A stretch of 64,000 nt of DNA from Alphaproteobacteria bacterium (GCA_965222575.1 OZ244958.1:32001-96000); one strand, 5' to 3'. Numbered from the stretch's first letter, positions 1,703-37,175 are shown. Notes: a model not told the origin generated them from the sequence alone. A program made the numbers and translations.

Positions 1703-1703
1703 G

Positions 1704-2381: not shown

Positions 2382-2397
2382 CCTTTCCTATCTTCTC

Positions 2398-5731: not shown

Positions 5732-5760
5732 TTGACTTCTCCTTAAATTTCTTCTATAGA
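5732..5760 (+). promoter_or_regulatory. sigma70-type promoter for the riboswitch-btuB transcript
   Basis: TTGACT-17bp-TATAGA immediately upstream of the riboswitch. Confidence 0.55.
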
Positions 5761-5769
5761 AACTAGTGC

Positions 5770-5955: not shown

Positions 5956-6061
5956 TACGCCATCATCGTACCTGCTACACGGGAAGCGTACAGGAACGTC
6001 AACGTTCAGGTGATGTACAACAAATCTGCCCCATCCCGTTGGCTAGAGAATAAGATTAGGT

Positions 6062-7933
6062 GTGCATATGAAGAAATGGGTACCCATTGGGACTATACTA
6101 TCTCTTTGCTTTTCTTACCTGCCTATGGCACTGACAAAACCTCTCCATCTCTCCATTTTCGTCCCTAAAGACTTACAAGACAATGCCTTCGGTTCTCGCT
6201 TCACAACCATCACAGAAGAGCAACTCAAACACCAATACATCTCAACCTTCACAGATGCCTTACAAAATGTTCCCGGCCTCAACATAGGACAAAGCGGTAG
6301 CATAGGGGGACTGAGCTCCGTTTGGATACGCGGGGCGGAATCAAACCATTTTGCCCTCTTCATCAATGACATAGAGATTCCAAGATTTTCCGGTAGCCCA
6401 GACTTGTCTAAAATCCCTAGTAACCAAATTGAACGCATCATAATCACACGCGGACCCCAAGGAGACCTTTCCGGTGCGGCAGCAGGAGCTATTCATATCT
6501 ACACATACAACAAGGCATTTTCTACCAAAGACTCTGTCCTCACAGTACGAGCTGGTCATACAACCTCTTTGTCTCTCCATCTTGAAAACGCCACCGATAC
6601 AACAACAGTCCAAAGTCGCTTATCATACCAACAAGACCAGGGCTGGGATGCTTCTCTTGACCTGAATGGGCAAAAAGATGGCGCTAGACATTTTGCGCTG
6701 TCTCTGAATACAACACATGCACTACAATCCTCTCTCTTAGTGTCTGCTAATATGCTCTATGCCAACATAACCAGTGAGTTTGATAACATCTCCCCCGGCT
6801 GCGGCTCCACAGCGTGCTATGTCAAAGAAGCCCCTTATACCTCCAACACGCAACTCGGGGGATTTCGCGTGAGCGGAACATACCAACAGGGAAACCTCGT
6901 CCACACACCAAACTTCTCTCTGTTTCGAGAGACTTCAACATACAAAAGCACCACCACCGCAAGCTCTACAGATACAGTGGCTCTTGCCCAGTATCAAGTC
7001 TCCTACAAAGAGGGGACACACCAGACAATAAAGGCTACACTAGCCTACAAGGTGGAAACATTTGCGAATTCTTACGCAGGGAAAACCCCCAAAAGTCGCA
7101 CGCAACGCAGTCTCATTTTAGGATATCAAGGACATATCACAAAGACCTTTCGTCTACGCACTAGTCTCCGACTTGAAGACAATGACCGATTCCAAAATGC
7201 CACCGGATGGTCTATAGCTAGTTCCTACGATATCATCCCTTCCTTCCTACGCCTTCATGGCTCCATAGGGCAAGGGCAAGTGCCACCAACCTTCTTTGAA
7301 CAATTCGGCTTTATCCCAGGGGAATTTATGGGCAATTCCTCACTGAAACCAGAAAAAACACTGGGGGGAGATACCGGGCTTACACTCTTTCTCTGGGGCA
7401 ACGCTACCTTCATTGACCTCACCATCTTCAAGAGCGTACTCACCAACGAAATCAAAGGATACGGCCAATCTGTACAGAACCTCACGCAAAAGAGTCTCCG
7501 CACAGGCCTCGAGATGACCTTTGAGACAACATCGTCAACCCTCTTTTCTCTCAGAGCCTCCTATACCTATCTCAAGGCAACAGACGCCCACGGAAAGCCC
7601 GAAACACGACGCCCCACACATACCGCTTCTGTGCAGCTCTCTTTGTTACTCGCCAAGAATTTTCGCATCAGTGTCAACACGACCTACAGCGGACGTTCCC
7701 TGCAACAGGACTTCAGTGCCTCCTCCGCCGCCTCCGCCTCCTCCGCCTCCGCCGCCGCCCCCATCCTCATCACCCGCCCCGCTAGCATAGCCCTCTCTTT
7801 ACAAGCCGGACTCTCTCTCAGCAAACAACTAGAACTCTTCTCATCCTTCTCAGCACCAACCCAACACGCCACCCCTCTCGGCTACGCAAAAAGACCATTC
7901 AGAATCCTCATCGGCATGCAAATAAAACAGTAA
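6062..7933 (+). CDS. btuB: TonB-dependent receptor, probable vitamin B12 transporter
   Basis: Plug motifs DALQNVPGL, SVWIRGAESNH, IERIIITRGPQ; barrel motifs GNSSLKPEK, SYTYLKA, RRPTHTAS; B12 riboswitch upstream. Confidence 0.85.
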   Translation: MHMKKWVPIGTILSLCFSYLPMALTKPLHLSIFVPKDLQDNAFGSRFTTITEEQLKHQYISTFTDALQNVPGLNIGQSGSIGGLSSVWIRGAESNHFALFINDIEIPRFSGSPDLSKIPSNQIERIIITRGPQGDLSGAAAGAIHIYTYNKAFSTKDSVLTVRAGHTTSLSLHLENATDTTTVQSRLSYQQDQGWDASLDLNGQKDGARHFALSLNTTHALQSSLLVSANMLYANITSEFDNISPGCGSTACYVKEAPYTSNTQLGGFRVSGTYQQGNLVHTPNFSLFRETSTYKSTTTASSTDTVALAQYQVSYKEGTHQTIKATLAYKVETFANSYAGKTPKSRTQRSLILGYQGHITKTFRLRTSLRLEDNDRFQNATGWSIASSYDIIPSFLRLHGSIGQGQVPPTFFEQFGFIPGEFMGNSSLKPEKTLGGDTGLTLFLWGNATFIDLTIFKSVLTNEIKGYGQSVQNLTQKSLRTGLEMTFETTSSTLFSLRASYTYLKATDAHGKPETRRPTHTASVQLSLLLAKNFRISVNTTYSGRSLQQDFSASSAASASSASAAAPILITRPASIALSLQAGLSLSKQLELFSSFSAPTQHATPLGYAKRPFRILIGMQIKQ

Positions 7934-7961
7934 ATGTCTTTACCGGTTATTAAAAAAACAC

Positions 7962-7990
7962 TTGAAAATCCATAATATTTTTGTTATAAT
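7962..7990 (+). promoter_or_regulatory. Near-consensus sigma70 promoter for the S8 array
   Basis: TTGAAA-17bp-TATAAT with extended -10 TG, 44 bp before the ATG at 8035. Confidence 0.7.
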
Positions 7991-8034
7991 TCCAAGACCC
8001 GTTGCCTTCTAGTAAACTGAAGCAAACACATACC

Positions 8035-10818
8035 ATGAAAAAATTCTTGTGGACACTCCCTCTAGTCTGCTTTCTCCCTCTATTAGTAGGCTGTGGAGGT
8101 AGTGGTGGTGGCGGTAGCAGTGGTGGTGGTGGCGGCCAAGTTAACCAAACGACTGGTACTGGTGAAGACGACTCTGGCGGTAACACTCTTGTCCAGAACC
8201 CTAGCCCTCCTATTCCCCCTATCCAAACCCCTCCTGTTGTGACCATCCCTGACTCTGACCCCCCCCTTGTCCAAGATACTCCGGAGGAAGTCGAGGAGAA
8301 AAAATTCGCAGCTCTTGTGACGCGCACTAGGGCAGCAGCGGCAGCGGTAAAATTTCAGATACAACGTCCTACCGAAGCGGACATCGCAAGCTTTCCCATC
8401 ATCAAAAGCAAAGAATTTAAAGACTCTGCTTACTGGACAAATAAAAATGATAAAAACTACATCCTAAGCTTTAGAGTTAGCCGCGAGTATAAAGGCAACA
8501 AATTTGTCTATGATGTACTAGGCTTATCGGAAGTTTATGCTCGGAATATCACTGGAAAATATATGAGTGGCATCTCTCAAGGGGAGCCTGTGAAAATCGG
8601 CGTCTGGGATTCAGGCATAACAAAAAGCGCTTTGAATTACAGAATCAGCAGAGAAAAACACCATGATACCTTAAAAACCCGAGTTACAGGGGTTTCGGTA
8701 GAAAACATGAATGAAAATGGTGATACTATCGATAAGGATGTCAAACTGTCTGACAAAGATACGCTTCTACGGGGGACAGTGATTGCTGCCCTGATTGCTG
8801 CTGGGAAAGATTATAGCATTGACAGAGGAGGCGACTATGAAGGCATACATGGCGTAGCCTACGACGCAACCCTCTTTTCTGTTGCCCAAAAATTATCAAT
8901 AGGTACAAGAGACATAGATACAAGAGATAATGCTGGAAAGACAATAGACCTAGAAAAAGTCGTAAAAAGATTTGTGAAAGAGGGCGTAAAAGTCCTCAAC
9001 ATAAGCTTTAACGACCAAAATGCGCCTCCTATTGCAGGCGGGCCGGACTGGTTTACCCCTTCAATGATTAAATCCTTAAAAGACGCTGACATTGTGACAG
9101 TCATGACGGCAGGACAGGTTTCACGAAACGAACCTTGGTATCCGGGTACAAAAGCATACGGCGCAGGAATGAAAGGATATGGATTAGTCATTGTAGAAGC
9201 CACAGCAGACAATAAAAAAGATAGGAAGAATGGGGAAGAATTTATTAAGCAAACCGATGTTACTGACAAAATCTTTCTTGGAAAACCACCAGACGTCATC
9301 ATTAATGGGGTTTCACACTCTTATAGCGGTAGCAACAGTGCTGCCTGTGGAGAGGAGTGGAAGTATTGCCTCACTGTCATCACACAGTGGTTTGGAAGCG
9401 GAAGCCCCGGAAGCAGCGCGGGGCTTCAATCACCACGCGCTTACCTTGCTCAGGATAAAAAGGGCGATAGTATCACAGAAAGAAAAACGAATGACTCTCC
9501 TGTTGTAACAGGAGCTGGTGCCGCTCTTGCAAGCGGAGCAGTGGCGTTATTACGGGGGGCTTATCCTACATTAAAAGGCAATGAGATTGTTGCTCTTTTG
9601 CTGGATTCTGCTATCAAACCACCAAAAGACACGCTCCTTGCTGACAAAGAGCAGTGGCGCGCAAAGTTCGGACGGGGTATTTTAAGTGTCAAAGAAGCAC
9701 TGAAACAATCTTTTGAAGCAGCGGTTCCCGCGCAAACTGCTAGTTCTTATGAGGCTACTGGGTTTTCTCTTTCTGCAGGAGGAGTGCGTGTAGCCCCCAG
9801 TCTTGGTGCCTTACCTCTTTTGAAACCGCTCAAGGGCAATACTCCCTTACAGATTTTGTTTTTTGATAAGTTCAGAGACCCTAATAGATATTGGGTACAA
9901 GACATAAACGATACATTTCTGTCTTTTGCTTCAAGAGGGGAAGAGAAGCCTGTGTTGTCTTTCTTTTCTTCTGTTTCCAGCACACTAAAGGCAGAAGTTG
10001 ACAAAGGGAGATTGTTGTTGAATAAGGAAGAGGGGAAAATGGCTTATGAAGGGGTGTTAGGAGAGGTGCCTTATCGTGTAGGGATTGGAGGAGAAATACT
10101 AGAGGAAGAGGATAGAGTATTAGCCTTAGCGTCTCACGGAGACCTTTTGGAGGAGAAGCGGTCTTTTTCATTAGGGTCTGGTTTTTACTTAGGGTTTGCT
10201 CAAGGAGAAAAAGAGGGGTATCGTGTGTATAGTGGATATCGTAAGACATTCGGGAGTGGGTTTTTGTATGGGGAAGCTGGTATTGTGAGAGAAGGGGAAG
10301 CCTTTTTAGGAGGGAGAGGTACAGCCTTTATGGAGTTTTCTAATGGAGGGAGGACTTGGTATGGGAGGATACAGGGGCGAATGCGTGTTGGGGGATTTGA
10401 GATGAATGTTGCGGCTTATATGGGGCGTAGTTTTTCTGGAGGGGAGGGGTCTAGGAGCAGTTGGTTAAGGCTTAAAGAAGGGAGAAGCCAAAGTGGGGGC
10501 ATCAGTATTAAAAGGGGGTTATCAAGAAAGAGAAGTATAGAGCTTGGGGCGCTTTTCCCTCTTAAAAGCTCTTATGTGGGAGAGATGTCTCAATTGGAGG
10601 TCTTAAAAGGCGACCTATTAGGGACTTTGCGTTGGTCACAACATGATGTAAGATTGTCCTCAGAAGGAAGAGAAAAGCTTTTTTATGGCTCTTATACGCA
10701 AGTCGTGAAGACAGGAGGGAAGATACACCTATCCTTCGGAGTGAGACTACAAAGAAACCATGTCCCTAATAGGGTACCGGAAAGCTTTTACCTCTTACAA
10801 TATCGGCGTGCTTTCTAA
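8035..10818 (+). CDS. S8 subtilase-like lipoprotein with C-terminal beta-barrel-like domain, copy 1 (predicted catalytically inactive)
   Basis: Lipobox LLVGC, Gly/Pro linker and GVWDSG are present, but LRGT replaces HGT, AGQ replaces AGN and TGAGAA replaces GTSxA. Ends YLLQYRRAF. Start moved to ATG 8035. Confidence 0.85.
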   Translation: MKKFLWTLPLVCFLPLLVGCGGSGGGGSSGGGGGQVNQTTGTGEDDSGGNTLVQNPSPPIPPIQTPPVVTIPDSDPPLVQDTPEEVEEKKFAALVTRTRAAAAAVKFQIQRPTEADIASFPIIKSKEFKDSAYWTNKNDKNYILSFRVSREYKGNKFVYDVLGLSEVYARNITGKYMSGISQGEPVKIGVWDSGITKSALNYRISREKHHDTLKTRVTGVSVENMNENGDTIDKDVKLSDKDTLLRGTVIAALIAAGKDYSIDRGGDYEGIHGVAYDATLFSVAQKLSIGTRDIDTRDNAGKTIDLEKVVKRFVKEGVKVLNISFNDQNAPPIAGGPDWFTPSMIKSLKDADIVTVMTAGQVSRNEPWYPGTKAYGAGMKGYGLVIVEATADNKKDRKNGEEFIKQTDVTDKIFLGKPPDVIINGVSHSYSGSNSAACGEEWKYCLTVITQWFGSGSPGSSAGLQSPRAYLAQDKKGDSITERKTNDSPVVTGAGAALASGAVALLRGAYPTLKGNEIVALLLDSAIKPPKDTLLADKEQWRAKFGRGILSVKEALKQSFEAAVPAQTASSYEATGFSLSAGGVRVAPSLGALPLLKPLKGNTPLQILFFDKFRDPNRYWVQDINDTFLSFASRGEEKPVLSFFSSVSSTLKAEVDKGRLLLNKEEGKMAYEGVLGEVPYRVGIGGEILEEEDRVLALASHGDLLEEKRSFSLGSGFYLGFAQGEKEGYRVYSGYRKTFGSGFLYGEAGIVREGEAFLGGRGTAFMEFSNGGRTWYGRIQGRMRVGGFEMNVAAYMGRSFSGGEGSRSSWLRLKEGRSQSGGISIKRGLSRKRSIELGALFPLKSSYVGEMSQLEVLKGDLLGTLRWSQHDVRLSSEGREKLFYGSYTQVVKTGGKIHLSFGVRLQRNHVPNRVPESFYLLQYRRAF

Positions 10819-10835
10819 TACCAAGTAGTACAAAA

Positions 10836-13445
10836 ATGAGAGAGTTCAGGAATACCCTTTTTGTTATAGCTTTATCTTTGTGTGTTGTAGCACTAGAAGG
10901 CTGTGGAGGTAGCGGCGGTGGTGGTAGTAGTAGCGGTGGCAGTGGTGGTGATACTAGTGAAACAACAAGTACGGGTACTAGTGGAACAAATACCCCTGGC
11001 AACTATGAGCGCGCTCTTAATGGTGAGAAGGTGAATGCTGTTTTTCCACTTCAAAAACCCGAAGGCTCTACAGATTCTGATGAAGACTTCATCGATAGCT
11101 TCAAAACAGACGAATACAAGAAAAACGGCTTCCTTTATGATTTTCTAGACCTGCGGCAATTCTATGCCCGAGGCATAACAGGAAAGGGCATCACTATTGG
11201 TATATGGGATTCAGGCTTCGACCCCGCACAGATAGGAGATGATACACTAAAGGACAGAACCAAAGGCTTTGCGCTATCAAATGACCCTGACAACTACCGA
11301 CTAAGACCTGATAAAACAATAGTGGTGACACTACCAGATAAACCACCACAGGTCTTGACATTTAATGATGAGAGACTTAAGACTTATGATTTCCCCCTTA
11401 CAGAAGACTTTGATGACGACACCTCCCCCAACCATGGCACACAAATGCTTTCCTTTATTGCTGCCGGGAAAGAGGGCTATGGTATACATGGCGTAGCCTA
11501 TGAGGCTTCGGCCTTTGTTATTGCGAACCCCTCAAATAACTTCCCACTCGACAGCATAACAGAAGGGGTAATAGGATACGGCAACAAGTTCATACCGGCG
11601 TTGCATCTCTGGGAATCCCAAGGGGTGAAAGTGGTCAATCTTAGTCTAACTTTGGACTTCGATGGGGCATCGGTGAACACTCAGACAGTGATGACAAACC
11701 TGATGACAAAAAAGGTACCAAAAGCATTAAAAGACCTAGATATTATCCTTGTCATAGCAGCAGGAAACGACGGATATGACGAAAATCCTGCTTTTCCGGG
11801 GCGCGCGGTGACAGAGATGAACGGGTGGGGATTAGTCATCACAGAAGCCGTTGTGTTAGCAACGGGAAAGTCTCGCACCTATACAGAAACTTCAGTTCAA
11901 AACCGATATAATCTCCTTAAAGAAAAGACCTCTGCCTTAATCACTGACGATAAGCTACCACCCTATATACAGGATAAAACAGGCCAGATTCTCTTAAGAA
12001 TGTATGACACAGGAAACAGCAACCCCTGTGGAAGTGCGAAAGCCTTTTGCCTCACTGTTTTAACCACAGCCCACGGAGCCTTAAGCGACGCAGTAGATAA
12101 GCCTAAAGTCTATATTAAGGGCAAAGATGATATTACCAAAGATGAAACAATAGTAGGCTCTTCTATGGCGACAGCTATAACAACTGGGGTCATAGCGTTG
12201 TTACGACAAGCTTATACCAAATTAGAAGGCAATGAGATTGTGAAGCTTATGTTAGAGAGCGCTCATAAAATACAGGGGAAGGAAGAGATATACGGACAAG
12301 GGATTTTAAGCCCCTGGAGAGCCCTTCTTCATCATTTTGGAAAGAAGACGGTTGTGGGGACAACTTCTAGTTCTTATGAGGCTACTGGGTTTTCTCTTGA
12401 TGAAGGAGAAGTGCGTGTAGCCCCCAGTCTTGGTGCCTTACCTCTTTTGAAACCCCTCAAGGGCAATACCCCCTTACAGATTTTGTTTTTTGATAAGTTC
12501 AGAGACCCTAATAGATACTGGGTACAAGACATAAATGATACGTTTCTGTCTTCTGTTTCAAGAGGGGAAGAGAAGCCTGTGTTGTCTTTCTTTTCTTCTG
12601 TTTCCAGCACACTAAAGGCACAAGTTGGCAAAGGGAGATTGTTGTTGAATAAGGAAGAGAAGAAGATGGCTTATGAAGGGGTATTAGGAGAGGTGCCTTA
12701 TCGTGTAGGGATTGGAGGAGAGGTACTAGAGGAAGACGATAGAGTATTAGCCTTAGCGTCTCACGGAGACCTTTTGGAGGAGAAGCGGTCTTTTTCATTA
12801 GGGTCTGATTTTTATTTAGGGTTTGCTCAAGGAGAAAGAGAGGGGTATCGTGTGTATAGCGGGTATCGTAAGACCTTTGGGAGTGGTTTTTTGTATGCGG
12901 AAGCTGGTATTGTGAGAGAAGGGGAAGCCTTTTTAGGAGGGAGAGGTACAGCCTTTATGGAGTTTTCTAATGGAGGGAGGACTTGGTATGGGAGGATACA
13001 GGGGCGAATGCGTGTTGGGGGATTTGAGATGAATGTTGCGGCTTATATGGGGCGTAGTTTTTCTGGAGGGGAGGGTTCTCAGAGCAGTTGGTTAAGGCTT
13101 AAAGAAGGGAGAAGCCAAAGTGGGGGCATCAGTGTTAAAAGGAGTTTATCAAGGGATAGAAGTATAGAGCTTGGGGTACTTTTCCCTCTTAAAAGCTCTT
13201 ATGTGGGAGAGATGTCTCAATTGGAGGTCTTAAAAGGCGACCTATTAGGGACTTTGCGTTGGTCACGGCACGATGTAAGATTGTCCTCAGAAGGAAGAGA
13301 AAAGCTTTTTTATGGCTCTTATACGCAAGTCGTGAAGACAGGAGGGAAGATACACCTATCCTTCGGAGTGAGACTACAAAGAAACCATGTCCCTAATAGG
13401 GTACCGGAAAGCTTTTACCTCCTACAATATCGGCGTGCTTTCTAA
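10836..13445 (+). CDS. S8 subtilase lipoprotein/autotransporter-like, copy 2 (subfamily B)
   Basis: ALEGC lipobox; triad GIWDSG / NHGTQM / GSSMATA; oxyanion AAGNDG; shared C-terminal module. Confidence 0.9.
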   Translation: MREFRNTLFVIALSLCVVALEGCGGSGGGGSSSGGSGGDTSETTSTGTSGTNTPGNYERALNGEKVNAVFPLQKPEGSTDSDEDFIDSFKTDEYKKNGFLYDFLDLRQFYARGITGKGITIGIWDSGFDPAQIGDDTLKDRTKGFALSNDPDNYRLRPDKTIVVTLPDKPPQVLTFNDERLKTYDFPLTEDFDDDTSPNHGTQMLSFIAAGKEGYGIHGVAYEASAFVIANPSNNFPLDSITEGVIGYGNKFIPALHLWESQGVKVVNLSLTLDFDGASVNTQTVMTNLMTKKVPKALKDLDIILVIAAGNDGYDENPAFPGRAVTEMNGWGLVITEAVVLATGKSRTYTETSVQNRYNLLKEKTSALITDDKLPPYIQDKTGQILLRMYDTGNSNPCGSAKAFCLTVLTTAHGALSDAVDKPKVYIKGKDDITKDETIVGSSMATAITTGVIALLRQAYTKLEGNEIVKLMLESAHKIQGKEEIYGQGILSPWRALLHHFGKKTVVGTTSSSYEATGFSLDEGEVRVAPSLGALPLLKPLKGNTPLQILFFDKFRDPNRYWVQDINDTFLSSVSRGEEKPVLSFFSSVSSTLKAQVGKGRLLLNKEEKKMAYEGVLGEVPYRVGIGGEVLEEDDRVLALASHGDLLEEKRSFSLGSDFYLGFAQGEREGYRVYSGYRKTFGSGFLYAEAGIVREGEAFLGGRGTAFMEFSNGGRTWYGRIQGRMRVGGFEMNVAAYMGRSFSGGEGSQSSWLRLKEGRSQSGGISVKRSLSRDRSIELGVLFPLKSSYVGEMSQLEVLKGDLLGTLRWSRHDVRLSSEGREKLFYGSYTQVVKTGGKIHLSFGVRLQRNHVPNRVPESFYLLQYRRAF

Positions 13446-13465
13446 TACTAGGCAGTACAGAAAAA

Positions 13466-16306
13466 ATGAGAGAGTTCAGGAATATCCTTTTTGTTATAGC
13501 TTTATCTTTGTGTGTTGTTGCACTAGAAGGCTGTGGCGGTAGTAGTGGTGGCGGTGGTGGTGGTGGTGAAACAACATATACACCCCCGCCCCTAAGACTG
13601 CCAAAAACTGATGCTGCCAAGAGCAACTATGGGCGCGCTCGTAGTGGTGAGGATGTGAATAATGTTTTTCCACTTACAGATACGGATGAAGACTTTATCG
13701 AGAGCTTCAAAACAACGGAGTATAAAGAAACAGGCGGGGCTGTTTATGACGCACTAGGCTTACGGTATTTCTATGCAAGAGGCTTGACTGGGGAAGGAAT
13801 GGAAGTTGCCGTACTGGATAAAGGCTTCAGCAGAGCGCATGCCGAAACAGCCGACGCCGATACCTCAAAAATAGATAGCTTACAATCCAGGATGTTTTGG
13901 CTCGATATACTAGTAGAAGGGAAGAACCTAAAGGACAACAACAAGCATACCTCATCACCACATGGCACCTACATGAGTATGATTATAGCTGCTGGGAAAG
14001 ATGATGTTAAACAACATGGCATAGCCTACAATGCTGAGGTCTATCATTTTAAAATACTTCACAAGCTGGACCCTTTCAAAATTTTGAGCAAAAATGGGCA
14101 GAAAAAACTAACCAAGGAGAACGAAAGGCGCGCATACAACCGACAAGTGGAAGCATTTGGAGTACCAAATAAGAATAATCACGAAATAGTTTCTGTTTAT
14201 AGCCTCAGATACGCAACCGACTTGCACGCAAAACTCAGTCAAGAAGATCAGAAGAAGTTGGAAAAAGCGGGACCAGAATACACCAAAAAGCTCTATTACG
14301 CATATCTAAAAGAACCTCACGAAAAGGGCATGAAGGTGATCAATATGAGTATGTTTTCTCCTACTGGTATAAAAAACATAAGTGGTGTGTATCAACTTCC
14401 AGACGATTTTAACCCCGATAACCCCGTCGGCGGGTTCCAGAACTTGATAAAGACTTATCAAGAGAATATGAAGAAACCGCTAAACGACCGCGACAGGTTT
14501 GATATTGTTCTATCGTTATGCGCAGGCAACGAGGGTATCCCTCAGCTTGCTAGCCCTGCTAACATAGCGCACTGGCTTGAGGTAAAAGATGAAAAAACAG
14601 GAGAACATCTAGGAGGATACGCCATTACCTCCACTAGTGTCGCCTCCACGGAATTGGGTCATCTTTTACCGGGAGGGACTTTTGATCCCAATAAAATAAT
14701 CTCTAATGTGAGAGACGCTGGATATAAGACCAATTTTCCCAATAAATGTGGAACGGGGAAATCCCAAAAATTTTGTCTAGCAGTCGTTGAAACAATCATA
14801 AACGTAAACCCCGATGAATCCCCCATTTTATGGGGGTGGAAACCGGAGAAAGCCTCTGAGAAGTGCGAAGCATATCGAGCAAGTGACAAAACAAAGACAG
14901 GTAATGATAATCCGTGCGAGGACTGGATTTTACCGAGATTTCCTGAAAATAACCCTATATTTTCTAAAGAAGCAATAAAAAAAATGATTAGATATGAAAC
15001 CACCAATCGCCCCCTGGTTGGAACTTCTGCTACGACAGCTGTAGTAAGTGGGGTAGCAACTTTGTTACGACAAGCTTTTCCTAAATTAAAGGCCTATGCG
15101 ATTGTGAAGCTTATGTTAGAGAGCGCTCATAAAATGCCGCAGAAACGTCTATACGGACAAGGGATTTTAAGCCCCTGGAGAGCCCTTCTTCTTCCTTTTG
15201 GACTGAAGACGGTTGTGGGGACAACTTCTAGTTCTTATGAGGCTACTGGGTTTTCTCTTTCTGCAGGAGGAGTGCGTGTATCGTCTAGTCTTGGTGCCTT
15301 ACCTCTTTTGAAACCGCTCAAGGGCAATACTCCCTTACAGATTTTGTTTTTTGATAAGTTCAGAGACCCTAACAGATATTGGGTACAAGACATAAACGAT
15401 ACATTTCTGTCTTCTGCTTCAAGAGGGGAAGAGAAGCCTGTGTTGTCTTTCTTTTCTTCTGTTTCCAGTACACTAAAGGCAGAAGTTGGTAAAGGGAGAT
15501 TGTTGTTGAATAAGGAAGAGGGGAAGATGGCTTATGAAGGGGTGTTAGGAGAGGTGCCTTATCGTGTAGGGATTGGAGGAGAGGTACTAGAGGAAGAAGA
15601 TAGAGTATTAGCCTTAGCGTCTCACGGAGACCTTTTGGAGGAGAAGCGGTCTTTTTCATTAGGGTCTGGTTTTTACTTAGGGTTTGCTCAAGGAGAAAGA
15701 GAGGGGTATCGTGTGTATAGTGGATATCGTAAGACATTCGGGAGTGGTTTTTTGTATGGGGAAGCTGGTATTGTGCGAGAAGGGGAAGCCTTTTTAGGAG
15801 GGAGAGGTACAGCCTTTATGGAGTTTTCTAATGGAGGGAGGACTTGGTATGGGAGGATACAGGGGCGAATGCGTGTTGGGGGATTTGAGATGAATGTTGC
15901 GGCTTATATGGGGCGTAGTTTTTCTGGAGGGGAGGGTTCTCAGAGCAGTTGGTTAAGGCTTAAAGAAGGGAGAAGCCAAAGTGGGGGCATCAGTGTTAAA
16001 AGGAGTTTATCTAGGAAGAGAAGTATAGAGCTTGGGGTACTTTTCCCTCTTAAAAGCTCTTATGTGGGAGAGATGTCTCAATTGGAGGTCTTAAAAGGCG
16101 ACCTATTAGGGACTTTGCGTTGGTCACAACATGATGTAAGACTATCCTCAGAAGGAAGAGAAAAGCTTTTTTATGGCTCTTATACGCAAGTCGTGAAGAC
16201 AGGGGGGAAGATACACCTATCCTTCGGAGTGAGACTACAAAGAAACCATGTCCCTAATAGGGTACCGGAAAGCTTTTACCTCTTACAATATCGGCACACT
16301 TTCTAA
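13466..16306 (+). CDS. S8 subtilase lipoprotein/autotransporter-like, copy 3 (subfamily C)
   Basis: ALEGC; AVLDKG / PHGTYM / CAGNEG / GTSATTA; shared C-terminal module. Confidence 0.9.
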   Translation: MREFRNILFVIALSLCVVALEGCGGSSGGGGGGGETTYTPPPLRLPKTDAAKSNYGRARSGEDVNNVFPLTDTDEDFIESFKTTEYKETGGAVYDALGLRYFYARGLTGEGMEVAVLDKGFSRAHAETADADTSKIDSLQSRMFWLDILVEGKNLKDNNKHTSSPHGTYMSMIIAAGKDDVKQHGIAYNAEVYHFKILHKLDPFKILSKNGQKKLTKENERRAYNRQVEAFGVPNKNNHEIVSVYSLRYATDLHAKLSQEDQKKLEKAGPEYTKKLYYAYLKEPHEKGMKVINMSMFSPTGIKNISGVYQLPDDFNPDNPVGGFQNLIKTYQENMKKPLNDRDRFDIVLSLCAGNEGIPQLASPANIAHWLEVKDEKTGEHLGGYAITSTSVASTELGHLLPGGTFDPNKIISNVRDAGYKTNFPNKCGTGKSQKFCLAVVETIINVNPDESPILWGWKPEKASEKCEAYRASDKTKTGNDNPCEDWILPRFPENNPIFSKEAIKKMIRYETTNRPLVGTSATTAVVSGVATLLRQAFPKLKAYAIVKLMLESAHKMPQKRLYGQGILSPWRALLLPFGLKTVVGTTSSSYEATGFSLSAGGVRVSSSLGALPLLKPLKGNTPLQILFFDKFRDPNRYWVQDINDTFLSSASRGEEKPVLSFFSSVSSTLKAEVGKGRLLLNKEEGKMAYEGVLGEVPYRVGIGGEVLEEEDRVLALASHGDLLEEKRSFSLGSGFYLGFAQGEREGYRVYSGYRKTFGSGFLYGEAGIVREGEAFLGGRGTAFMEFSNGGRTWYGRIQGRMRVGGFEMNVAAYMGRSFSGGEGSQSSWLRLKEGRSQSGGISVKRSLSRKRSIELGVLFPLKSSYVGEMSQLEVLKGDLLGTLRWSQHDVRLSSEGREKLFYGSYTQVVKTGGKIHLSFGVRLQRNHVPNRVPESFYLLQYRHTF

Positions 16307-16326
16307 TACTAGGCAGTACAGAAAAA

Positions 16327-19188: not shown

Positions 19189-19208
19189 TACTAGGCAGTA
19201 CAGAAAAA

Positions 19209-22061: not shown

Positions 22062-22078
22062 TACCAAGTAGTACAAAA

Positions 22079-25000
22079 ATGAGAGAGTTCAAGAATATTC
22101 TTTTTGTTATGGCTTTATCTTTGTGTGTTGTAGCACTAGAAGGCTGTGGAGGGTAGCGGCGGTGGTGGTAGTAGCGGTGGCAGTGGTGGTGATACTAGTG
22201 GAACAACAAGTACGGGTACTAGTGGAACAACTACGCCCCCGACCCCACCTACCCCGCCTCCTGTTGACAATAAAATTGATGATACTAAAGCTCCTGTTGA
22301 CGATAAAGCTCCTGTTGACGATAAAGCTCCTGTTGACGATAAAGTTGTTGATGGTGGTGGAATAACAACTACGCCCCCGACCCCACCTACCCCGCCTCCT
22401 GTTGACGATAAAGTTGTTGAGGCTATAAAACTGTTGACGATTGTTGATGACGATAAAACCGTTGATGATACTAAAGCTGTTGATGCTAAAGCTACTGTTG
22501 ACGATAAAATTGATGATGCTAAAGTTGTTGATGAAGGTGTTTTTGACGATAAAACTGTTGTTGACGATAAAATTGAGGCTATAAAACTGTTGACGATTGT
22601 TGTTGACGATAAAATTGATGATACTAAAGCTGTTGTTGACAATAAAGTTGTTGATGCTAAAGCTGTTGATGAAGGTGTTTTTGACGATAAAACTGTTGTT
22701 GACGATAAAATTGAGGCTATAAAACTGTTGACGATTGTTGTTGACGATAAAATTGATGATACTAAAGCTGTTGTTGACAATAAAGTTGTTGATGCTAAAG
22801 CTGTTGATGAAGGTGTTTTTGACGATAAAACTGTTGTTGACGATAAAATTGAGGCTATAAAACTGTTGACGATTGTTGTTGACGATAAAATTGATGATAC
22901 TAAAGCTGTTGTTGACAATAAAGTTGTTGATGCTAAAGCTCCTGTTTTTGACGATAAAACTGTTGTTGTTGAGGCTATAAAACTGTTGACGATTGTTGTT
23001 GACGTTGATGACGATAAAACTGTTGTTGACGATACAATTGATGACGATAAAACCGTTGATGATAATAAAACTGTTGTTGACGATAAAGTTGTTGATGCTA
23101 AAGCTGTTGATGAAGGTGTTTTTGACGATAAAACTGTTGTTGACGATACAATTGATGACGATAAAACCGTTGATGATAATAAAACTGTTGTTGACGATAA
23201 AGTTGTTGATGCTAAAGCTGTTGATGAAGGTGTTTTTGACGATAAAACTGTTGTTGACGATAAAATTGATGCTATAAAACTGTTGACGATTGTTGATGAC
23301 GATAAAATTGATGATGCTAAAGCTGTTGTTGATGGTCGTATTTTTGAAGATAGCAAAATCAGAAATGCCCTCGCTCTTAGCAATCCTGAGAAGAAGACTG
23401 TCAATGATATTTTTCCAATTAAAAAGCACAGCCGTTTAACGGATCAAAGGTTTCTCCTTAGCTTCAAAACAACGGAATACCTGAAAAACGGGTTTCTTTA
23501 TGATTTTCTAGAACTGCGGCAATTCTATGCCCGAGGCATAACAGGAAAGGGCATCACTGTTGGCATATGGGATACAGGCTTCGACCCCAATGTTATGGGA
23601 AAGGATACGCTAAAGGCGAGAACCAAAGGCTTTGGGATAAAATATCTTCTAAGCAATAGCGAAATAGTGGTCTTGTCGATAGAGCCGAGTAAACGCATTC
23701 AACTTGATGATCTTAGACTTAAGACTTATGATTTCCCCCTTACAGACGACTTTGATGACGACTTCCATGGCACACAAATGCTTTCCTTTATTGCTGCCGG
23801 GAAAGAGAACTATGGTATGCATGGCGTAGCCTATGAGGCTTCGGCCTTTGTTATTGCGAACCCCTCAAATAACTTCCCACTCGACAGCATAACAAATGGG
23901 GGGGTAATAGGATACGGCAACAAGTTCATACCGGCGTTGCATCTCTGGGAATCCCAAGGGGTGAAAGTGGTCAATCTTAGTATGAGTTTGGACTTCGATG
24001 GGGCATCTTCGAACACTCAGACAGTGATGACAAACCTGATGGAAGAAAAGGTACCAACAGCATTAGAAAAGCTAGATATTATCCTTGTCATAGCAGCAGG
24101 AAACGACGGATATGACAATCCTGCTTTTCCGGGGCGCGCGGTGACAGAGATGAAGGGGTGGGGATTAGTCATCACAGAAGCCGTTGTGTTAGCAACGGGA
24201 GAGTCTCTCACCTATACAGAAACTTCAGTTCAAAACCGATATAATCTCCTTAAAGAAAAGACCTCTGCCTTAATCACTGACGATAAGCTACCACCCTATA
24301 TACAGGGTAGGAGTACAACAGGCCAGATTCTCTTAAGAATGTATGACACAGGAAACAGCAATCCTTGTGGAAGTGCGAAAAACTTTTGCCTCACTGTTTT
24401 AACCACAGCCCACGGAGCCTTCACCACATCTATGCCTCAATCCTATATTAACGGCAAAGATAAAACAATAGTAGGCTCTTCTTTGGCGACAGCTGTAACA
24501 ACTGGGGTCATAGCGTTGTTACGACAAGCTTATACCAAATTAGAAGGCAATGAGATTGTGCAACTTCTGTTAGAGAGCGCTCATAAAATACAGGGGAAGG
24601 CGGGCATCGGGGAGAAAGCAGTTGAATCGGACACAATATACGGACAAGGGATTTTAAGCCCCTGGAGAGCCCTTCTTGTTCCTTTTGAAGAAGCGGTTGT
24701 AGGGACAACTTCTAGTTCTTATGAGGCCGCTGGGGTTTCTCTTTCTGCAGGAGGAGTGCGTGTAGCCCCCAGTCTTGGTGCCTTACCTCTTTTGAAACCG
24801 CTCAAGGGCAATACTCCCTTACAGATTTTGTTTTTTGATAAGTTCAGAGACCCTAATAGATATTGGGTACAAGACATAAACGATACGTTTCTGTCTTCTG
24901 TTTCAAGAGGGGAAGAGAAGCCTGTGTTGTCTTTCTTTTCTTCTGTTTCCAGCACACTAAAGGCGCAAGTTGGCAAAGGGAGATTGTTGTTGAATAAGGA

Positions 25001-25790
25001 AGAGGGGAAGATGGCTTATGAAGGGGTGTTAGGAGAGATACCTTATCGTGTAGGGATTGGAGGAGAATTTGTAGAGGAAGAGGATAGAGTATTAGCCTTA
25101 GCGTCTCACGGAGACCTTTTGGAGGAGAAGCGGTCTTTTTCATTAGGGTCTGATTTTTCCTTAGGGTTTGCTCAAGGAGAAAGAGAGGGGTATCGTGTGT
25201 ATAGTGGATATCGTAAGACCTTTGGGAGTGGTTTTTTGTATGCGGAAGCTGGTATTGTGAGAGAAGGGGAAGCCTTTTTAGGAGGGAGGGGGACAGCCTT
25301 TATGGAGTTTTCTAATGGAGGGAGGACTTGGTATGGGAGGATACAGGGGCGAATGCGTGTTGGGGGATTTGAGATGAATGTTGCGGCTTATATGGGGCGT
25401 AGTTTTTCTGGAGGGGAGGGTTCTCAGAGCAGTTGGTTAAGGCTTAAAGAAGGGAGAAGCCAAAGTGGGGGCATCAGTGTTAAAAGGAGTTTATCTAGGA
25501 AGAGAAGTATAGAGCTTGGGGCGCTTTTCCCTCTTAAAAGCTCTTATGTGGGAGAGATGTCTCAATTGGAGGTCTTAAAAGGCGACCTATTAGGGACTTT
25601 GCGTTGGTCACAACATGATGTAAGACTATCCTCAGAAGGAAGAGAAAAGCTTTTTTATGGCTCTTATACGCAAGTCGTGAAGACAGGAGGGAAGATACAC
25701 CTATCCTTCGGAGTGAGACTACAAAGAAACCATGTCCCTAATAGGGTACCGGAAAGCTTTTACCTCCTACAATATCGGCGTGCTTTCTAA
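22079..25790 (+). pseudogene. S8 subtilase lipoprotein, copy 6 (subfamily B), +1 frameshift after the lipobox, with long D/V/K repeat linker
   Basis: ATG 22079 gives MREFKNILFVMALSLCVVALEGCGG then TAG (22154), because of GGAGGGTAGC versus GGAGGTAGC in sister copies. The remainder (22146-25790) is open with an intact triad. Confidence 0.8.
22260..23335 (+). repeat. Low-complexity coding repeat (GTTGACGATAAA-based) with 138-bp and 114-bp higher-order units
   Basis: GAAGGTGTTTTT anchors at 22533, 22671, 22809 (period 138) and 23112, 23226 (period 114). Confidence 0.92.
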
Positions 25791-25807
25791 TACCAGGTAG
25801 TACAAAA

Positions 25808-28465
25808 ATGAGAGAGTTCAAGAATATTCTTTTTGTTATGGCTTTATCTTTGTGTGTTGTAGCACTAGAAGGCTGTGGAGGTAGCGGCGGCGGTGGTGGT
25901 AGTAGCGGTGGCGGTGGAACAAACACGCCTGTTGTTGACAACTATGCGTTAGCTCTTAAGGCTTCTTCCTCTTTTGAGGAGAAGAATCCTTGGCCTACTG
26001 TCAATAAAGTTTTTCCACTTAAAAACCCCGAAGACTCTACAGATTCTGATGAAGCGTTTCTCAAGAGCTTCAAAACAGAGGAATACCAGAAAAACGGCTT
26101 CCTTTATGATTTTCTAGAACTGCCGGAATTCTATGCCCGAGGCATAACAGGAGAGGGCATCACTGTTGGCATATGGGATTCAGGCTTCGACCCCAATGTT
26201 ATGGGAAAGGATACGCTAAAGGCGAGAATCAAAGGAGTTAAGCTAGAAAATCTAACACCTGATAAGCAAATAATGACGTCGCTACCCTATCCACATCTCG
26301 TTCCATTTGACCATTATAGACTTCCTAATTACGAGTTCCCCCTTACAGAAGACTTTGATGACGACATCTCCCATGGCACAACAATGCTTTCCTTTATTGC
26401 TGCCGGGAAAGAGGGGGATGGTATACATGGCGTAGCCTATGAGGCTTCGGCCTTTGTTATTGCTGCAGACACTTTCTCCACGGACATAATTACACCAGAG
26501 GAAGCGGTAGTAGAAGGCGACAAGTTCATACCGGCGCTTCATCTCTGGAAATCCCGAGGGGTGAAAGTGGTCAATTTTAGTATGGGTTTTCGGTTAGAGA
26601 TGTTAGAGGAGGCAGCGAATAAGGAGATAGAACAACTGAAATCATTGCCAGGGATGACACAAGAGGCTTTGGAAGCATACCTCAAGAAGCTGGTGCCTTT
26701 TATTAAGGAAAGGGTAAAAAATCTGATGACAGAAAAGGTACCAGAAGCATTAGAAGCTCTAGATATTATCCTTGTCATATCAGCAGGAAACGACGGATAT
26801 AACGAAAACCCTGACAAAAACTACGAAAATCCTGCTTTTCCGGGGCGCGCGGTGACAGAGATGAACGGGTGGGGATTAGTCATCACAGAAGCCGTTGTGT
26901 TACACAAGGAAATGTCTTTTACCTTTTCAGATCCTTCAGATCAAAAACAATATGAGATCCTTAAAGAAAAGACCTCTGCCGAAATCACTGACGATAAGCT
27001 ACAATCTTATACACAGGATAAAACAGGCCAGATTCTCTTAAAAATGTATGAGACAGGAAACAGCAATCCCTGTGGAAGTGCTAAAGACTTTTGCCTCACT
27101 GTTTTAACCACAGCCCTCTTCCCCACCTACCTAAATGAGCCTAAAGTACATCTTAAAGACAAAGATGAAACAATAGAAGGCTCTTCTATGGCGACAGCTA
27201 TAACAACTGGGGTCATAGCGTTGTTACAACAAGCTTATTCCACATTAAAAGGCAATGAGATTGTGCAGCTTCTGTTAAAGAGCGCTCATAAAATACCGGG
27301 GAAGGAAGAGATATACGGACAAGGGATTTTAAGCCCCCGGAGAGCCCTTCTTCTTCCTTTTGAAGCAGCGGTTCCCGCGCACACTGCTAGTTCTTATGAG
27401 GCTACTGGGTTTTCTCTTGATGCAGGAGGAGTGCGTGTAGCCCCCAGTCTTGGTGCCTTACCTCTTTTGAAACCGCTCAAGGGCAATACTCCCTTACAGA
27501 TTTTGTTTTTTGATAAGTTCAGAGACCCTAATAGATATTGGGTACAAGACATAAACGATACATTTCTGTCTTCTGTTTCAAGAGGGGAAGAGAAGCCTGT
27601 GTTGTCTTTCTTTTCTTCTGTTTCCAGCACACTAAAGGCACAAGTTGGCAAAGGGAGATTGTTGTTGAATAAGGAAGAGAGGAAGATGGCTTATGAAGGG
27701 GTATTAGGAGAGGTGCCTTATCGTGTAGGGATTGGAGGAGAAGTACTAGAGGAAGAAGATAGAGTATTAGCCTTAGCGTCTCACGGAGACCTTTTGGAGG
27801 AGAAGCGGTCTTTTTCATTAGGGTCTGGTTTTTCCTTAGGGTTTGCTCAAGGAGAAAAAGAGGGGTATCGTGTCTATAGTGGATATCGTAAGACATTTGG
27901 GAGCGGTTTTTTGTATGCGGAAGCTGGCATTGTGAGAGAAGGGGAAGCCTTTTTAGGAGGGAGAGGTACAGCTTTTATGGAGTTTTCTAATGGAGGGAGG
28001 ACTTGGTATGGGAGGATACAGGGGCGAATGCGTGTTGGGGGATTTGAGATGAATGTTGCGGCTTATATGGGGCGTAGTTTTTCTGGAGGGGAGGGGTCTA
28101 GGAGCAGTTGGTTAAGGCTTAAAGAAGGGAGAAGCCAAAGTGGGGGCATCAGTATTAAAAGGGGGTTATCAAGAAAGAGAAGTATAGAGCTTGGGGCGCT
28201 TTTCCCTCTTAAAAGCTCTTATGTGGGAGAGATGTCTCAATTGGAGGTCTTAAAAGGCGACCTATTAGGGACTTTGCGTTGGTCACAACATGATGTAAGA
28301 TTGTCCTCAGAAGGAAGAGAAAAGCTTTTTTATGGCTCTTATACGCAAGTCGTGAAGACAGGAGGGAAGATACACCTATCCTTCGGAGTGAGACTAGAAA
28401 GAAACCATGTCCCTAATAGGGTACCGGAAAGCTTTTACCTCCTACAATATCGGCACACTTTCTAA
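25808..28465 (+). CDS. S8 subtilase lipoprotein/autotransporter-like, copy 7 (subfamily B)
   Basis: ALEGC; GIWDSG / SHGTTM / SAGNDG / GSSMATA; helical insertion after VVNFS; shared C-terminal module. Confidence 0.9.
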   Translation: MREFKNILFVMALSLCVVALEGCGGSGGGGGSSGGGGTNTPVVDNYALALKASSSFEEKNPWPTVNKVFPLKNPEDSTDSDEAFLKSFKTEEYQKNGFLYDFLELPEFYARGITGEGITVGIWDSGFDPNVMGKDTLKARIKGVKLENLTPDKQIMTSLPYPHLVPFDHYRLPNYEFPLTEDFDDDISHGTTMLSFIAAGKEGDGIHGVAYEASAFVIAADTFSTDIITPEEAVVEGDKFIPALHLWKSRGVKVVNFSMGFRLEMLEEAANKEIEQLKSLPGMTQEALEAYLKKLVPFIKERVKNLMTEKVPEALEALDIILVISAGNDGYNENPDKNYENPAFPGRAVTEMNGWGLVITEAVVLHKEMSFTFSDPSDQKQYEILKEKTSAEITDDKLQSYTQDKTGQILLKMYETGNSNPCGSAKDFCLTVLTTALFPTYLNEPKVHLKDKDETIEGSSMATAITTGVIALLQQAYSTLKGNEIVQLLLKSAHKIPGKEEIYGQGILSPRRALLLPFEAAVPAHTASSYEATGFSLDAGGVRVAPSLGALPLLKPLKGNTPLQILFFDKFRDPNRYWVQDINDTFLSSVSRGEEKPVLSFFSSVSSTLKAQVGKGRLLLNKEERKMAYEGVLGEVPYRVGIGGEVLEEEDRVLALASHGDLLEEKRSFSLGSGFSLGFAQGEKEGYRVYSGYRKTFGSGFLYAEAGIVREGEAFLGGRGTAFMEFSNGGRTWYGRIQGRMRVGGFEMNVAAYMGRSFSGGEGSRSSWLRLKEGRSQSGGISIKRGLSRKRSIELGALFPLKSSYVGEMSQLEVLKGDLLGTLRWSQHDVRLSSEGREKLFYGSYTQVVKTGGKIHLSFGVRLERNHVPNRVPESFYLLQYRHTF

Positions 28466-28474
28466 TACCAGAAG

Positions 28475-29908
28475 ATGACAGCGCTAAAGCCTATCCTTTT
28501 TGTTATAGCTTTATCTTTGTGTGTTGTTCCCCATAGCAACTATGCGCGCGCTCTTAGGGGTGATAAGGTGAATGATGTTTTTCCACTTCAAAAAGAAGGC
28601 TATGCAGGTTCTGATGAAGCGTTTCTCAAGAGCTTCAAAACAGAGGAATACCAGAAAAACGGCTTCCTTTATGATTTTCTAGAACTGCCGCAATTCTATG
28701 CCCGAGGCATAACAGGAGAGGGCATCACTGTTGGCATATGGGATTCAGGCTTCAACCCCGATGTTATGGGAGAGGATACGCTAAAGGAGAGAACCAAAGG
28801 CATTAAGCTAGAACACATAAAGACGGATAACTCTATAGAGATACCCCCCTACACCCTGAGATTAGATGATAGTAGACTTGCTCATCAAGATTTCCTCCTT
28901 ACAGAAGACATTGATATCCCCCTCTCTCTTTCTCACTCCGGTTATCATGGCACAAAGATGCTTTCCTTTATTGCTGCCGGGAAAGAGGGCTATGGTATAC
29001 AGGGTGTAGCGTATCAGGCTTCGGCCTTTGTTATTGCTGAACAAACCAATTCATTCCCCTACAAAAAGCTCATACCGGCGCTTCACCTCTGGAAATCCCA
29101 AGGGGTGAAAGTGGTCAATTTTAGTCTGACTTTGCAGTTAGAACGTGTCTCTCCAAAGATGCATTACCGCTTGTCTCACCTAACAAGAACAGAACTCCCA
29201 AAAGCATTAGAAGCTCTAGATATTATCCTTGTCCTGGCAGCAGGAAACGAAGGATATAACAAACACTACTCAAATCCTGCTTTTCCGGGAAATGTGGATA
29301 TGAAGGGGTGGGGATTAGTCATCACAGAAGCCGTTGTGTTACCAACGGGAGAGGATTTGAGAGTTAAAGATAAAAAACGATATGAGATCATTAAAGACAA
29401 GACCTCTACCTCAATCACTGACCATAAGCTACAATCCTATATACAGGATAAAACAGGCCAGATTCTCTTAAGAATGTATGACTTAGGAAACAGCAATCCC
29501 TGTGGAAGCGCGAAAGACTTTTGCCTCACTGTTTTAACCACAGCCACCTCTCCTAGCGGCTCAACATATATGCCTCAAGCCTATCTTAACGGCAAAGATA
29601 AACCAGAAGGGGGCTCTTCTATGGCAACAGCCATAGCAACTGGGGTCATCGCTTTGTTACAACAAGCTTATCCCACATTAAACGGCAAGGAAATTGTGCA
29701 GCTTCTGTTAGAGAGCGCTCATAAAATCCCGGGGAAGGAACATATATACGGACAAGGGATTTTAAGCCCATGGAGAGCCCTTCTTCTTGCTCTTGAAAAA
29801 AAGACACCACGCACCACTCTCTCTTACCCCACTTTCGTCCCTCTTTATGCAGGAGACCAGACTATAGGAAAATCTTCACTATTCCGCCCGAAAAAAAACA
29901 AACATTAA
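28475..29908 (+). CDS. S8 subtilase, copy 8 (subfamily B), lacking lipobox and C-terminal module
   Basis: Signal-like ILFVIALSLCVV joined directly to the mature domain without EGC/poly-Gly. Triad intact (GIWDSG, YHGTKM, GSSMATA). Ends ~40 aa after YGQGILSPWRAL. Confidence 0.85.
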   Translation: MTALKPILFVIALSLCVVPHSNYARALRGDKVNDVFPLQKEGYAGSDEAFLKSFKTEEYQKNGFLYDFLELPQFYARGITGEGITVGIWDSGFNPDVMGEDTLKERTKGIKLEHIKTDNSIEIPPYTLRLDDSRLAHQDFLLTEDIDIPLSLSHSGYHGTKMLSFIAAGKEGYGIQGVAYQASAFVIAEQTNSFPYKKLIPALHLWKSQGVKVVNFSLTLQLERVSPKMHYRLSHLTRTELPKALEALDIILVLAAGNEGYNKHYSNPAFPGNVDMKGWGLVITEAVVLPTGEDLRVKDKKRYEIIKDKTSTSITDHKLQSYIQDKTGQILLRMYDLGNSNPCGSAKDFCLTVLTTATSPSGSTYMPQAYLNGKDKPEGGSSMATAIATGVIALLQQAYPTLNGKEIVQLLLESAHKIPGKEHIYGQGILSPWRALLLALEKKTPRTTLSYPTFVPLYAGDQTIGKSSLFRPKKNKH

Positions 29909-29954
29909 GGAGTGTGTTATAACATGCTGTCATGTTAACAATACACACCCGCTC

Positions 29955-30932: not shown

Positions 30933-30951
30933 CGGTAACCCTCCCTCTCTC

Positions 30952-37174: not shown

Positions 37175-37175
37175 C

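Follow-up and report, generated by a model that had tools for sequence, protein, structure and literature searches.

A tandem array of subtilisin-like protease genes with a homogenized C-terminal module and diversified protease domains in an alphaproteobacterium

Subtilisin-like autotransporters that are lipidated at the N-terminus are known from NalP of Neisseria meningitidis and SphB1 of Bordetella pertussis (PMC9977779, PMC9289746), both members of Group 15 (PMC9289746). According to these reports, subtilase autotransporters present a protease of ~400 amino acids (aa) on a beta-helix stalk of ~200 aa, which is present in Ssp and predicted for the others (PMC9977779, PMC9289746). Here, we describe a 22-kb array at positions 7962-29908 of a 64,000-nucleotide (nt) stretch of DNA from Alphaproteobacteria bacterium (GCA_965222575.1 OZ244958.1:32001-96000; this whole stretch is referred to as the window), in which eight consecutive long co-oriented open reading frames (ORFs) on the + strand, g1 to g8, encode peptidase S8 domains. 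Like NalP and SphB1, the array genes combine a predicted lipoprotein signal, an S8 protease, and a predicted C-terminal membrane barrel in the same order; their S8 domain is nearest to the NalP/SphB1 clade, and surface tethering of a protease is the likely shared mode of action. In contrast to these single genes with a PF03797 barrel and a predicted stalk, the array holds seven homogenized barrels and shows no PF03797, PATR, or beta-helix. With moderate confidence, we interpret the locus as a set of tandem paralogues for subtilisin-like proteins anchored in the outer membrane; their plan would be that of lipidated type Va autotransporters, but with a new type of barrel, and they would be under gene conversion and diversifying selection.

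As an arrangement of genes, the locus is comparable to the vompD, A, B, and C genes of Bartonella quintana, which are alphaproteobacterial tandem co-oriented surface paralogues with conserved ends (PMC10936683). The array likewise consists of co-oriented tandem paralogues with conserved ends and with recombination between copies. However, the four vomp genes encode trimeric adhesins (type Vc) with no enzyme, and their copy number is documented to vary, the loss of copies during infection being read there as antigenic or phase variation (PMC10936683). The Sca proteins of Rickettsia combine a conserved autotransporter domain with divergent passengers, for which positive selection and recombination have been reported, and Sca4 and Sca9, as g8, have no barrel of their own (PMC3415449); unlike the array, the sca genes are dispersed and encode classical PF03797 barrels with adhesin or actin-effector passengers. 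By analogy, the array would work most like NalP and SphB1, resembles vomp as an array, and resembles Sca in pairing a constant barrel with a fast-changing passenger. The open-access literature searched yielded no account of S8/barrel genes arrayed in tandem in this way. One candidate, the endobacteria of Esteya vermicola (PMC9111515), was set aside as unrelated, being a Phyllobacterium of 3.96 Mb and 58.9% guanine-plus-cytosine (GC) content with dispersed subtilases.

A first-pass annotation of the window, made from the sequence, had described eight co-oriented subtilase genes separated by 9-20 bp, and this layout is borne out: all eight ORFs score above the gathering cut-off of PF00082 (Peptidase_S8; 44.9-79.4 bits versus 21.8), and the successive spacers from g1 to g8 measure 17, 20, 20, 20, 17, 17, and 9 nt (Table 1). 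To call all eight lipoprotein/barrel genes was an overcount, since seven carry the 358-aa C-terminal module, one of these (g6) being frameshifted, and g8 has neither lipobox, linker, nor module. The N-terminus of g8 is hydrophobic but is without a lipobox cysteine or a Gly-rich linker (tether), and its stop falls ~35 codons into module-like sequence; therefore, it is without a barrel. The start of g1 is taken at the ATG at 8035, with a TTG at 8002 as the alternative, and the database gene call (P0008) corresponds to the 927-aa form.

Table 1. Positions of the array genes and associated features, counted from the first nucleotide of the window
Feature	Positions	Strand	Description
Candidate promoter	7962-7990	+	sigma-70-like, TTGAAA-17-TATAAT, TG before the -10 hexamer; 11/12 matches
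g1	8035-10818	+	927 aa; class C; lipobox LLVGC; Gly/Pro-rich linker of ~100 aa; S8-like domain; module
Module copy 1/7	9742-10818	+	358 codons + stop
g2	10836-13445	+	869 aa; class A; catalytic D/H/N/S intact; module present; AlphaFold model made
Module copy 2	12369-13445	+	
g3	13466-16306	+	946 aa; class B; catalytic residues intact; module present
Module copy 3	15230-16306	+	
g4	16327-19188	+	953 aa; class B; catalytic residues intact; module present
Module copy 4	18112-19188	+	
g5	19209-22061	+	950 aa; class B; repeat-bearing linker; module present
Module copy 5	20985-22061	+	
g6	22079-25790	+	class A; frameshifted as read; catalytic residues intact; module present
g6 repeat tether	22258-23336	+	acidic, D/K/V-rich; ~1.1 kb; basic period 18 nt
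Module copy 6	24714-25790	+	
g7	25808-28465	+	885 aa; class A; catalytic residues intact; module present
Module copy 7	27389-28465	+	
g8	28475-29908	+	477 aa; class A S8 domain; catalytic residues intact; no barrel
Hairpin	29911-29947	+	imperfect, no T-run; just after the g8 stop

The two ends of these proteins differ in their evolution. In g1-g7, the last 1077 nt align without gaps at 95.5-98.0% pairwise identity (22-49 differences per pair of copies), and the invariant-length 358-aa module with terminal Phe, as first annotated, holds for all seven, ending in the aromatic/hydrophobic pattern ...YLLQYR(RA/HT)F. The near-identity extends beyond the module: together with the spacer and the next signal peptide it forms a constant block of ~1.17-1.19 kb, which lies, as had been claimed, on both sides of each variable cassette, and the first 75 nt of g2, g3, g4, g5, and g7 are 93-99% identical to one another. 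The signal peptide of g1 differs, its first 75 nt being only 44-47% identical to those copies. Nonsynonymous and synonymous divergence (dN and dS; their ratio is given as omega) were obtained by Nei-Gojobori counts, with the module measured identically as an internal control. Over all 21 pairs, module dS is 0.046-0.111 and dN/dS is 0.14-0.35, and between-class protease dS in the same genes is saturated (1.08-2.72 in 16 pairs). A synonymous divergence of ~0.1 beside a saturated neighbor is beyond what purifying selection produces; therefore, the module has been homogenized.

The pattern of variation within the module gives direct evidence of repeated short-tract gene conversion with variable end points, which homogenizes not only the module but also the spacer of 17-20 nt and the signal peptide that follows it. 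Among the 1077 module sites, 84 are variable and 51 informative, in a mosaic pattern; 755 of the 1275 pairs of informative sites are incompatible in the four-gamete test, and the pairwise homoplasy index (PHI) of 0.488, compared with 0.592 on average after permutation of site order (sd 0.018), was reached in 0/5000 permutations. Over-long identical tracts occur in 7 of the 21 pairs at p<0.01 and in 11 at p<0.05 (uncorrected for 21 tests), and g1-g7 share an identical module tract of 423 nt (p=0.001). The upstream edge of near-identity also varies from pair to pair: g2, a class A gene, is 96-100% identical to the class B genes g4 and g5 from ~100 nt upstream of the module, which is not the case for g6, also of class A. 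The suggestion that homologous recombination acts across the constant block thus stands in the form of gene conversion (PHI and the 755/1275 incompatible pairs), but cassette swapping, duplication, or deletion was not observed.

Three classes can be told apart among the protease domains, namely A (g2, g6, g7, g8), B (g3, g4, g5), and C (g1), class B being marked by long insertions between the His and Asn motifs. The three class B pairs have an omega of 1.43-1.77, each with a bootstrap interval above 1, and it rises to 1.59-2.14 when codons within 5 positions of any gap are left out. Among g2, g6, and g7, unfiltered omega is 1.15-1.31, where only g6-g7 reaches P(omega<=1)=0.029, and the gap filter gives 1.43-1.96, with two of the three intervals above 1. 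In sliding windows, dN is low near each of the four motifs (Asp, His, Asn, and Ser) and high in the stretches that separate them. The proposed diversity in the enzyme thus takes the form of three old classes and, inside them, more nonsynonymous than synonymous change, with an omega of 1.4-2.1 in the best-supported pairs versus 0.14-0.35 in the module.

The three classes are recovered at 99-100 support in a maximum-likelihood tree built from 16 protease-domain rows, comprising all 8 genes of the window together with 5 ENA proteins and 3 outgroups, none dropped. Each class holds both window and ENA members; therefore, the classes predate the split between these strains. Branches are shortest in class C (0.02-0.04 versus 0.10-0.75 in classes A and B), which makes its dead protease, described below, the most conserved class. 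ENA and window modules differ at 12-26 of 358 residues, window copies among themselves at 8-20, and there are no fixed differences. The same module polymorphisms circulate in the window and ENA strains.

Catalytic Asp, His, and Ser and the oxyanion Asn are present in seven of the eight genes. In g1, the Asp is kept, and His is replaced by Arg, the oxyanion Asn by Gln, and Ser by Gly; all three substitutions recur in its ENA counterparts, P0005 and P0010. Judged from these residues, g1 is a catalytically dead pseudo-protease that is conserved across strains. A more distant database protein, P0011 (967 aa, with a module 27% identical), is without all four catalytic residues; therefore, the combination of a dead subtilase with this barrel recurs beyond the lineage of the window.

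The S8 domain itself is akin to those of autotransporters. Its best relative in the PDB is the passenger of Ssp from Serratia marcescens (8e7f), both by sequence (E 4.6e-7) and by fold (rank 1, E 3.2e-13), although at only 16% identity over the Foldseek alignment. Outside the family, the only relatives with further domains are P0017 and P0019, which combine PF00082 with PATR and PF03797 at 25-27% identity, and the sub-threshold NCBIfam matches are to the autotransporter proteases EprS and fusolisin. Ssp is also described as having substrate-binding loop protrusions around the active site, to which the variable inserts of the array proteases may plausibly be analogous. The cysteines of the S8 domain occur in closely spaced pairs, a pattern usual for passengers.

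The nature of the C-terminal module was approached through sequence, profile, and structure searches. In an AlphaFold model of the module alone, residues 140-359 form 12 strands (block predicted local distance difference test [pLDDT] mostly 62-87), and in the model of full-length g2, 12 strands lie at 649-867. A Foldseek search of the PDB with the module model returned outer-membrane barrels of many kinds and nothing else among the best matches, the one match at E<=0.001 being Vibrio cholerae OmpT. From these models, we conclude that the module is an outer-membrane beta-barrel, probably 12-stranded, and that it lies outside all described sequence families. By origin, it could be an autotransporter domain that has diverged strongly, or it could be of another kind.

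Relatives of the module are few. HMMER found six matches at E<=0.001 among 1,835,955,588 representative proteins: P0009, a near-identical ENA protein; P0011, P0013, and P0014, in which an S8 or S8-like domain is joined to a C-terminal module at 26-33% identity; P0015, a 197-aa fragment; and P0012, a PKD-repeat protein aligned over only ~60 residues (7-67), which was taken as spurious. A second profile iteration on longer proteins added only P0013 to the close group. A word-indexed search of 5.8 billion proteins found 10, five of them the window's own (g3 and g6 were not among the 10) and five from ENA contigs of 10,343, 12,783, and 19,997 nt. The small number of matches in both protein searches indicates that the module family is real but very rare. 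A tblastn search of 72,556 plasmids with the module gave no match, and in a 185,579-species genome set, which evidently does not include the array's own genome, 131 pattern matches yielded 0 confirmed by tblastn, although with two peptide patterns only, so that distant relatives may escape. A sequence search of the PDB with the module profile had 0 matches at E<=10, and ESM Atlas feature searches gave only weak porin and SlipAM leads. Among the distant relatives, P0013 (953 aa) has N-terminal ankyrin repeats ahead of an S8 domain that is intact and a barrel of the same kind, and it ends in ...GGKK instead of Phe.

For the first-pass annotation, the question had been whether the module is a PF03797 autotransporter domain or a novel barrel. 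PF03797 was absent from all eight genes at E<=0.01, from the isolated module at E<=10, and from five of five family members, and the sole Pfam/NCBIfam signal in five members of the wider family was a sub-threshold OprB match on a fragment. With no PF03797 match, and with an hhalign probability of 0.1-0.2% for the module profile against the classical subtilase autotransporters P0017 and P0019, the first option is not supported. A bolder reading, which we regard as doubtful, is that the module is a new outer-membrane translocator or anchor unrelated to PF03797, confined to a few alphaproteobacterial lineages and always fused to an S8 or pseudo-S8 domain. The array would then be a built-in variation system, in which gene conversion keeps the export part interchangeable, selection diversifies the cassettes, and strains reshuffle them.

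At the other end of the proteins, the lipobox was assigned by eye. The lipobox consensus is L-[AS]-[GA]-C after a hydrophobic signal segment; g1 has a canonical L-V-G-C, and g2-g7 have L-E-G-C (ALEG-C). The tether that follows the cysteine is of low complexity and rich in Gly, Ser, Thr, and Pro in most copies. In g5, the linker includes 5.7 copies of a 15-nt unit (PIEN[TP]) at 19325-19410, and in g6 the repeat tether has two higher-order units, one of 138 nt (3.3 copies, 97% matches) and one of 114 nt (3.0 copies, 91%), with GC falling to 0.395. Two long antisense ORFs (440 and 422 aa; 22107-23429, - strand) overlap the g6 tether; because their translations are repetitive and of low complexity, their sequence suggests by-products of the repeats and not genes.

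The reading frame of g6 is interrupted upstream of this repeat tether. Its signal-peptide frame (22079-22156) runs from the ATG at 22079 to a TAG at 22154-22156 directly after the lipobox cysteine, and one extra G relative to the other copies, just 3' of the lipobox, shifts the main ORF (1214 aa) to the +1 frame from 22146. The position of the stop codon right after a GGAGG-like stretch raised the possibility of programmed +1 frameshifting at GGA-GGG-TAG, which was rejected as unsupported: the site is present in no other copy, and its layout differs from that of the known prfB site. The extra G is more likely to be a true mutation or an error in the reads.

Under our preferred interpretation, in which the array encodes outer-membrane-anchored autotransporter-like proteases, the genes would be transcribed together from the promoter at 7962-7990, and each full-length product would run from a Sec/lipoprotein signal through a flexible tether and an S8 passenger to a ~140-aa junction and a 12-strand barrel ending in Phe. 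The proteins would be lipidated and the barrel put into the outer membrane by the Bam machinery, with the protease domains presented on, or released from, the cell surface. At a host interface, they would provide a range of different specificities or antigenic forms, among which g1 would act as a non-catalytic binder. Co-transcription, lipidation, surface exposure, and cassette swapping are steps that we infer.

Several points weigh against this interpretation. With respect to the barrel, the isolated module has no match in Pfam at E<=10 or in NCBIfam at E<=1, and the hhalign result given above offers no link to classical subtilase autotransporters. The two AlphaFold models are of moderate mean pLDDT (53.9 and 61.1), and in both, pLDDT is <50 over the ~140 aa ahead of the barrel, which leaves unmodelled the segment in which a linker through the pore, usually a helix, would be expected. 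The Foldseek TM-scores are at most 0.34 and not specific to autotransporters, with EstA at rank 12 and BrkA at rank 31. With respect to the passenger, PATR (PF12951) is absent from all eight genes, although found in P0017 and P0019, and the model of full-length g2 contains no beta-helix. The Glu at -2 in the lipobox of g2-g7 is unusual. With respect to selection, Nei-Gojobori counting ignores transition bias and can inflate omega, the unfiltered class A intervals include 1, and g8 compared with g2, g6, and g7 gives an omega of 0.8-1.0. Expression, lipidation, surface exposure, and proteolytic activity are all predictions here.

Alternatively, the proteins could be periplasm-facing envelope proteases, with barrel and lipid anchor in the outer membrane and the S8 domain in the periplasm, so that no translocation would take place. 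The barrel without a recognizable autotransporter domain and the models without a pore-spanning helix fit this possibility, and a Lol-sorted lipoprotein by default reaches the inner leaflet of the outer membrane. However, the S8 domain is nearest to autotransporter passengers, its paired cysteines are presumably those of a passenger, and dN/dS above 1 together with long variable or repeat tethers is typical of exposed proteins and not of housekeeping envelope enzymes. We therefore consider a periplasmic orientation unlikely.

A second alternative retains surface exposure but not type V secretion: the lipoprotein would carry its own translocon of the Slam/type XI kind, a fused PF04575-related barrel that would flip the protease outward. 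Slam/type XI systems (PF04575) are outer-membrane barrels for surface lipoproteins, and the module bears a weak language-model resemblance to them with no profile match. Clusters of PF04575 SlipAM were the commonest named ESM Atlas matches to the barrel (11/30, score 0.93), and the cargo is a predicted lipoprotein; but only 140-142 of 256 features are shared versus ~170 typical of true members, shuffled proteins can score as high, and PF04575 was absent at E<=10 in the five family members scanned. In addition, the models show 12 strands, whereas Slam barrels are said to have 14. In Slam systems, barrel and cargo are separate proteins. We consider a Slam-type route very unlikely.

It could further be argued that the copies are decaying, functionless duplicates whose omega near or above 1 is due to nothing but relaxed constraint, for which the g6 frameshift, the truncated g8 (omega ~0.8-1.0), and g1 without catalytic residues could be cited. 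Relaxed constraint does not agree with seven ORFs of 2.6-3.6 kb without internal stops, a module omega of 0.14-0.35, catalytic motifs conserved in seven of eight copies with low dN around them, or a class B omega significantly above 1, and the dead g1 belongs to the class most conserved between strains. General decay thus appears highly improbable. Most improbable of all is an assembly artefact, that is, strain variants or dispersed loci joined together or a wrong copy number, because although 1.1-kb repeats at 95.5-98% identity assemble poorly, the ENA genes P0003 and P0010 are cut off N-terminally as if contigs broke inside an array, and the g6 single-base frameshift could be a read error, every copy is distinct in module (22-49 differences per pair) and cassette, spacing and reading frames are regular over 22 kb, the array sits on a contig listed at 1,215,846 nt, and ENA pairs of two classes occur on contigs of 12,783 nt (P0003, P0006) and 19,997 nt (P0009, P0010), where the members of a pair report an identical contig size and therefore probably share a contig.

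If the barrel is a distinct translocator, the family would represent a new branch of type V-like secretion that current profile libraries miss. Within one 22-kb locus, concerted evolution of an anchor is joined to positive selection on an enzyme and to a conserved dead protease, so that the array would offer a naturally compact setting in which to study the diversification of bacterial surface enzymes. Because short-read assemblies break at arrays of this kind, similar ones are likely under-reported in metagenome-assembled genomes.

The near-consensus promoter annotated upstream of g1 is present (Table 1); it lies ~45 nt upstream of the g1 ATG and scores best among the + strand sites of 7800-27000. 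Because the region as a whole has no excess of such sites (22 versus 28.8 expected in shuffles), it is a candidate and not proof. Inside the array there are six + strand terminator-like sites, all with short stems of 5-7 pairs, and such sites are not in excess of shuffles (19 versus 17.6 expected; in a second scan, 2 versus 5.9). The terminator scan found no + strand terminator-like site in 27000-31500; the hairpin just after the g8 stop (-15.4 kcal/mol, z -2.39, with 4/200 shuffles folding equally well) is a possible end of the transcription unit. A 325-aa ORF at 29955-30932 (+), 46 nt after g8, begins with a Pro/Thr-rich segment and continues Glu/Lys/Leu-rich; it has no match in Pfam, NCBIfam, or PADLOC and may belong to the same transcription unit.

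Upstream of the array, a cobalamin riboswitch (5756-5970, +; 92 bits) directly precedes a gene for a BtuB-like TonB-dependent receptor (6062-7933, +), which ends 29 nt before the array promoter; the two appear to form a separate B12-regulated unit. At the low-coordinate end of the window, 2-4641 (-) holds type I-C cas8c, which runs off the window edge, cas5c, and cas3. Downstream of the array, 30952-38558 (-) holds alpha-type addA, addB, tsaE, and dnaA. At ~30 kb, exactly where the array ends and + strand genes meet - strand genes, there is a change of sign in GC skew.

The alphaproteobacterial origin of the window is in keeping with the alpha-type AddA/AddB models and with the relatives of LysS. 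Across the best 80 LysS loci in the 185,579-species set, identities are 42-57% (the highest being partial matches; at most 54% over the full length), and all but a few of these loci are labelled Alphaproteobacteria or an alphaproteobacterial group. With identities no higher than 57%, this alphaproteobacterium therefore has no close sequenced relative in the set. A life in association with a host is plausible. Two ankyrin-repeat proteins (49612-50613 and 59634-61181, -), with repeat-level matches to Legionella Ank effectors that are all below cut-off, fit association with a eukaryotic host. At 60-62 kb, GC reaches up to 0.536. Finally, a 578-aa ATPase (57725-59461, -), encoded by a gene adjoining the tRNA/tuf cluster (54747-57109), matches with its N-terminus the defense ATPases OLD, AriA, and GajA (PADLOC E 1e-20 to 1e-22) and is possibly the product of an anti-phage gene.

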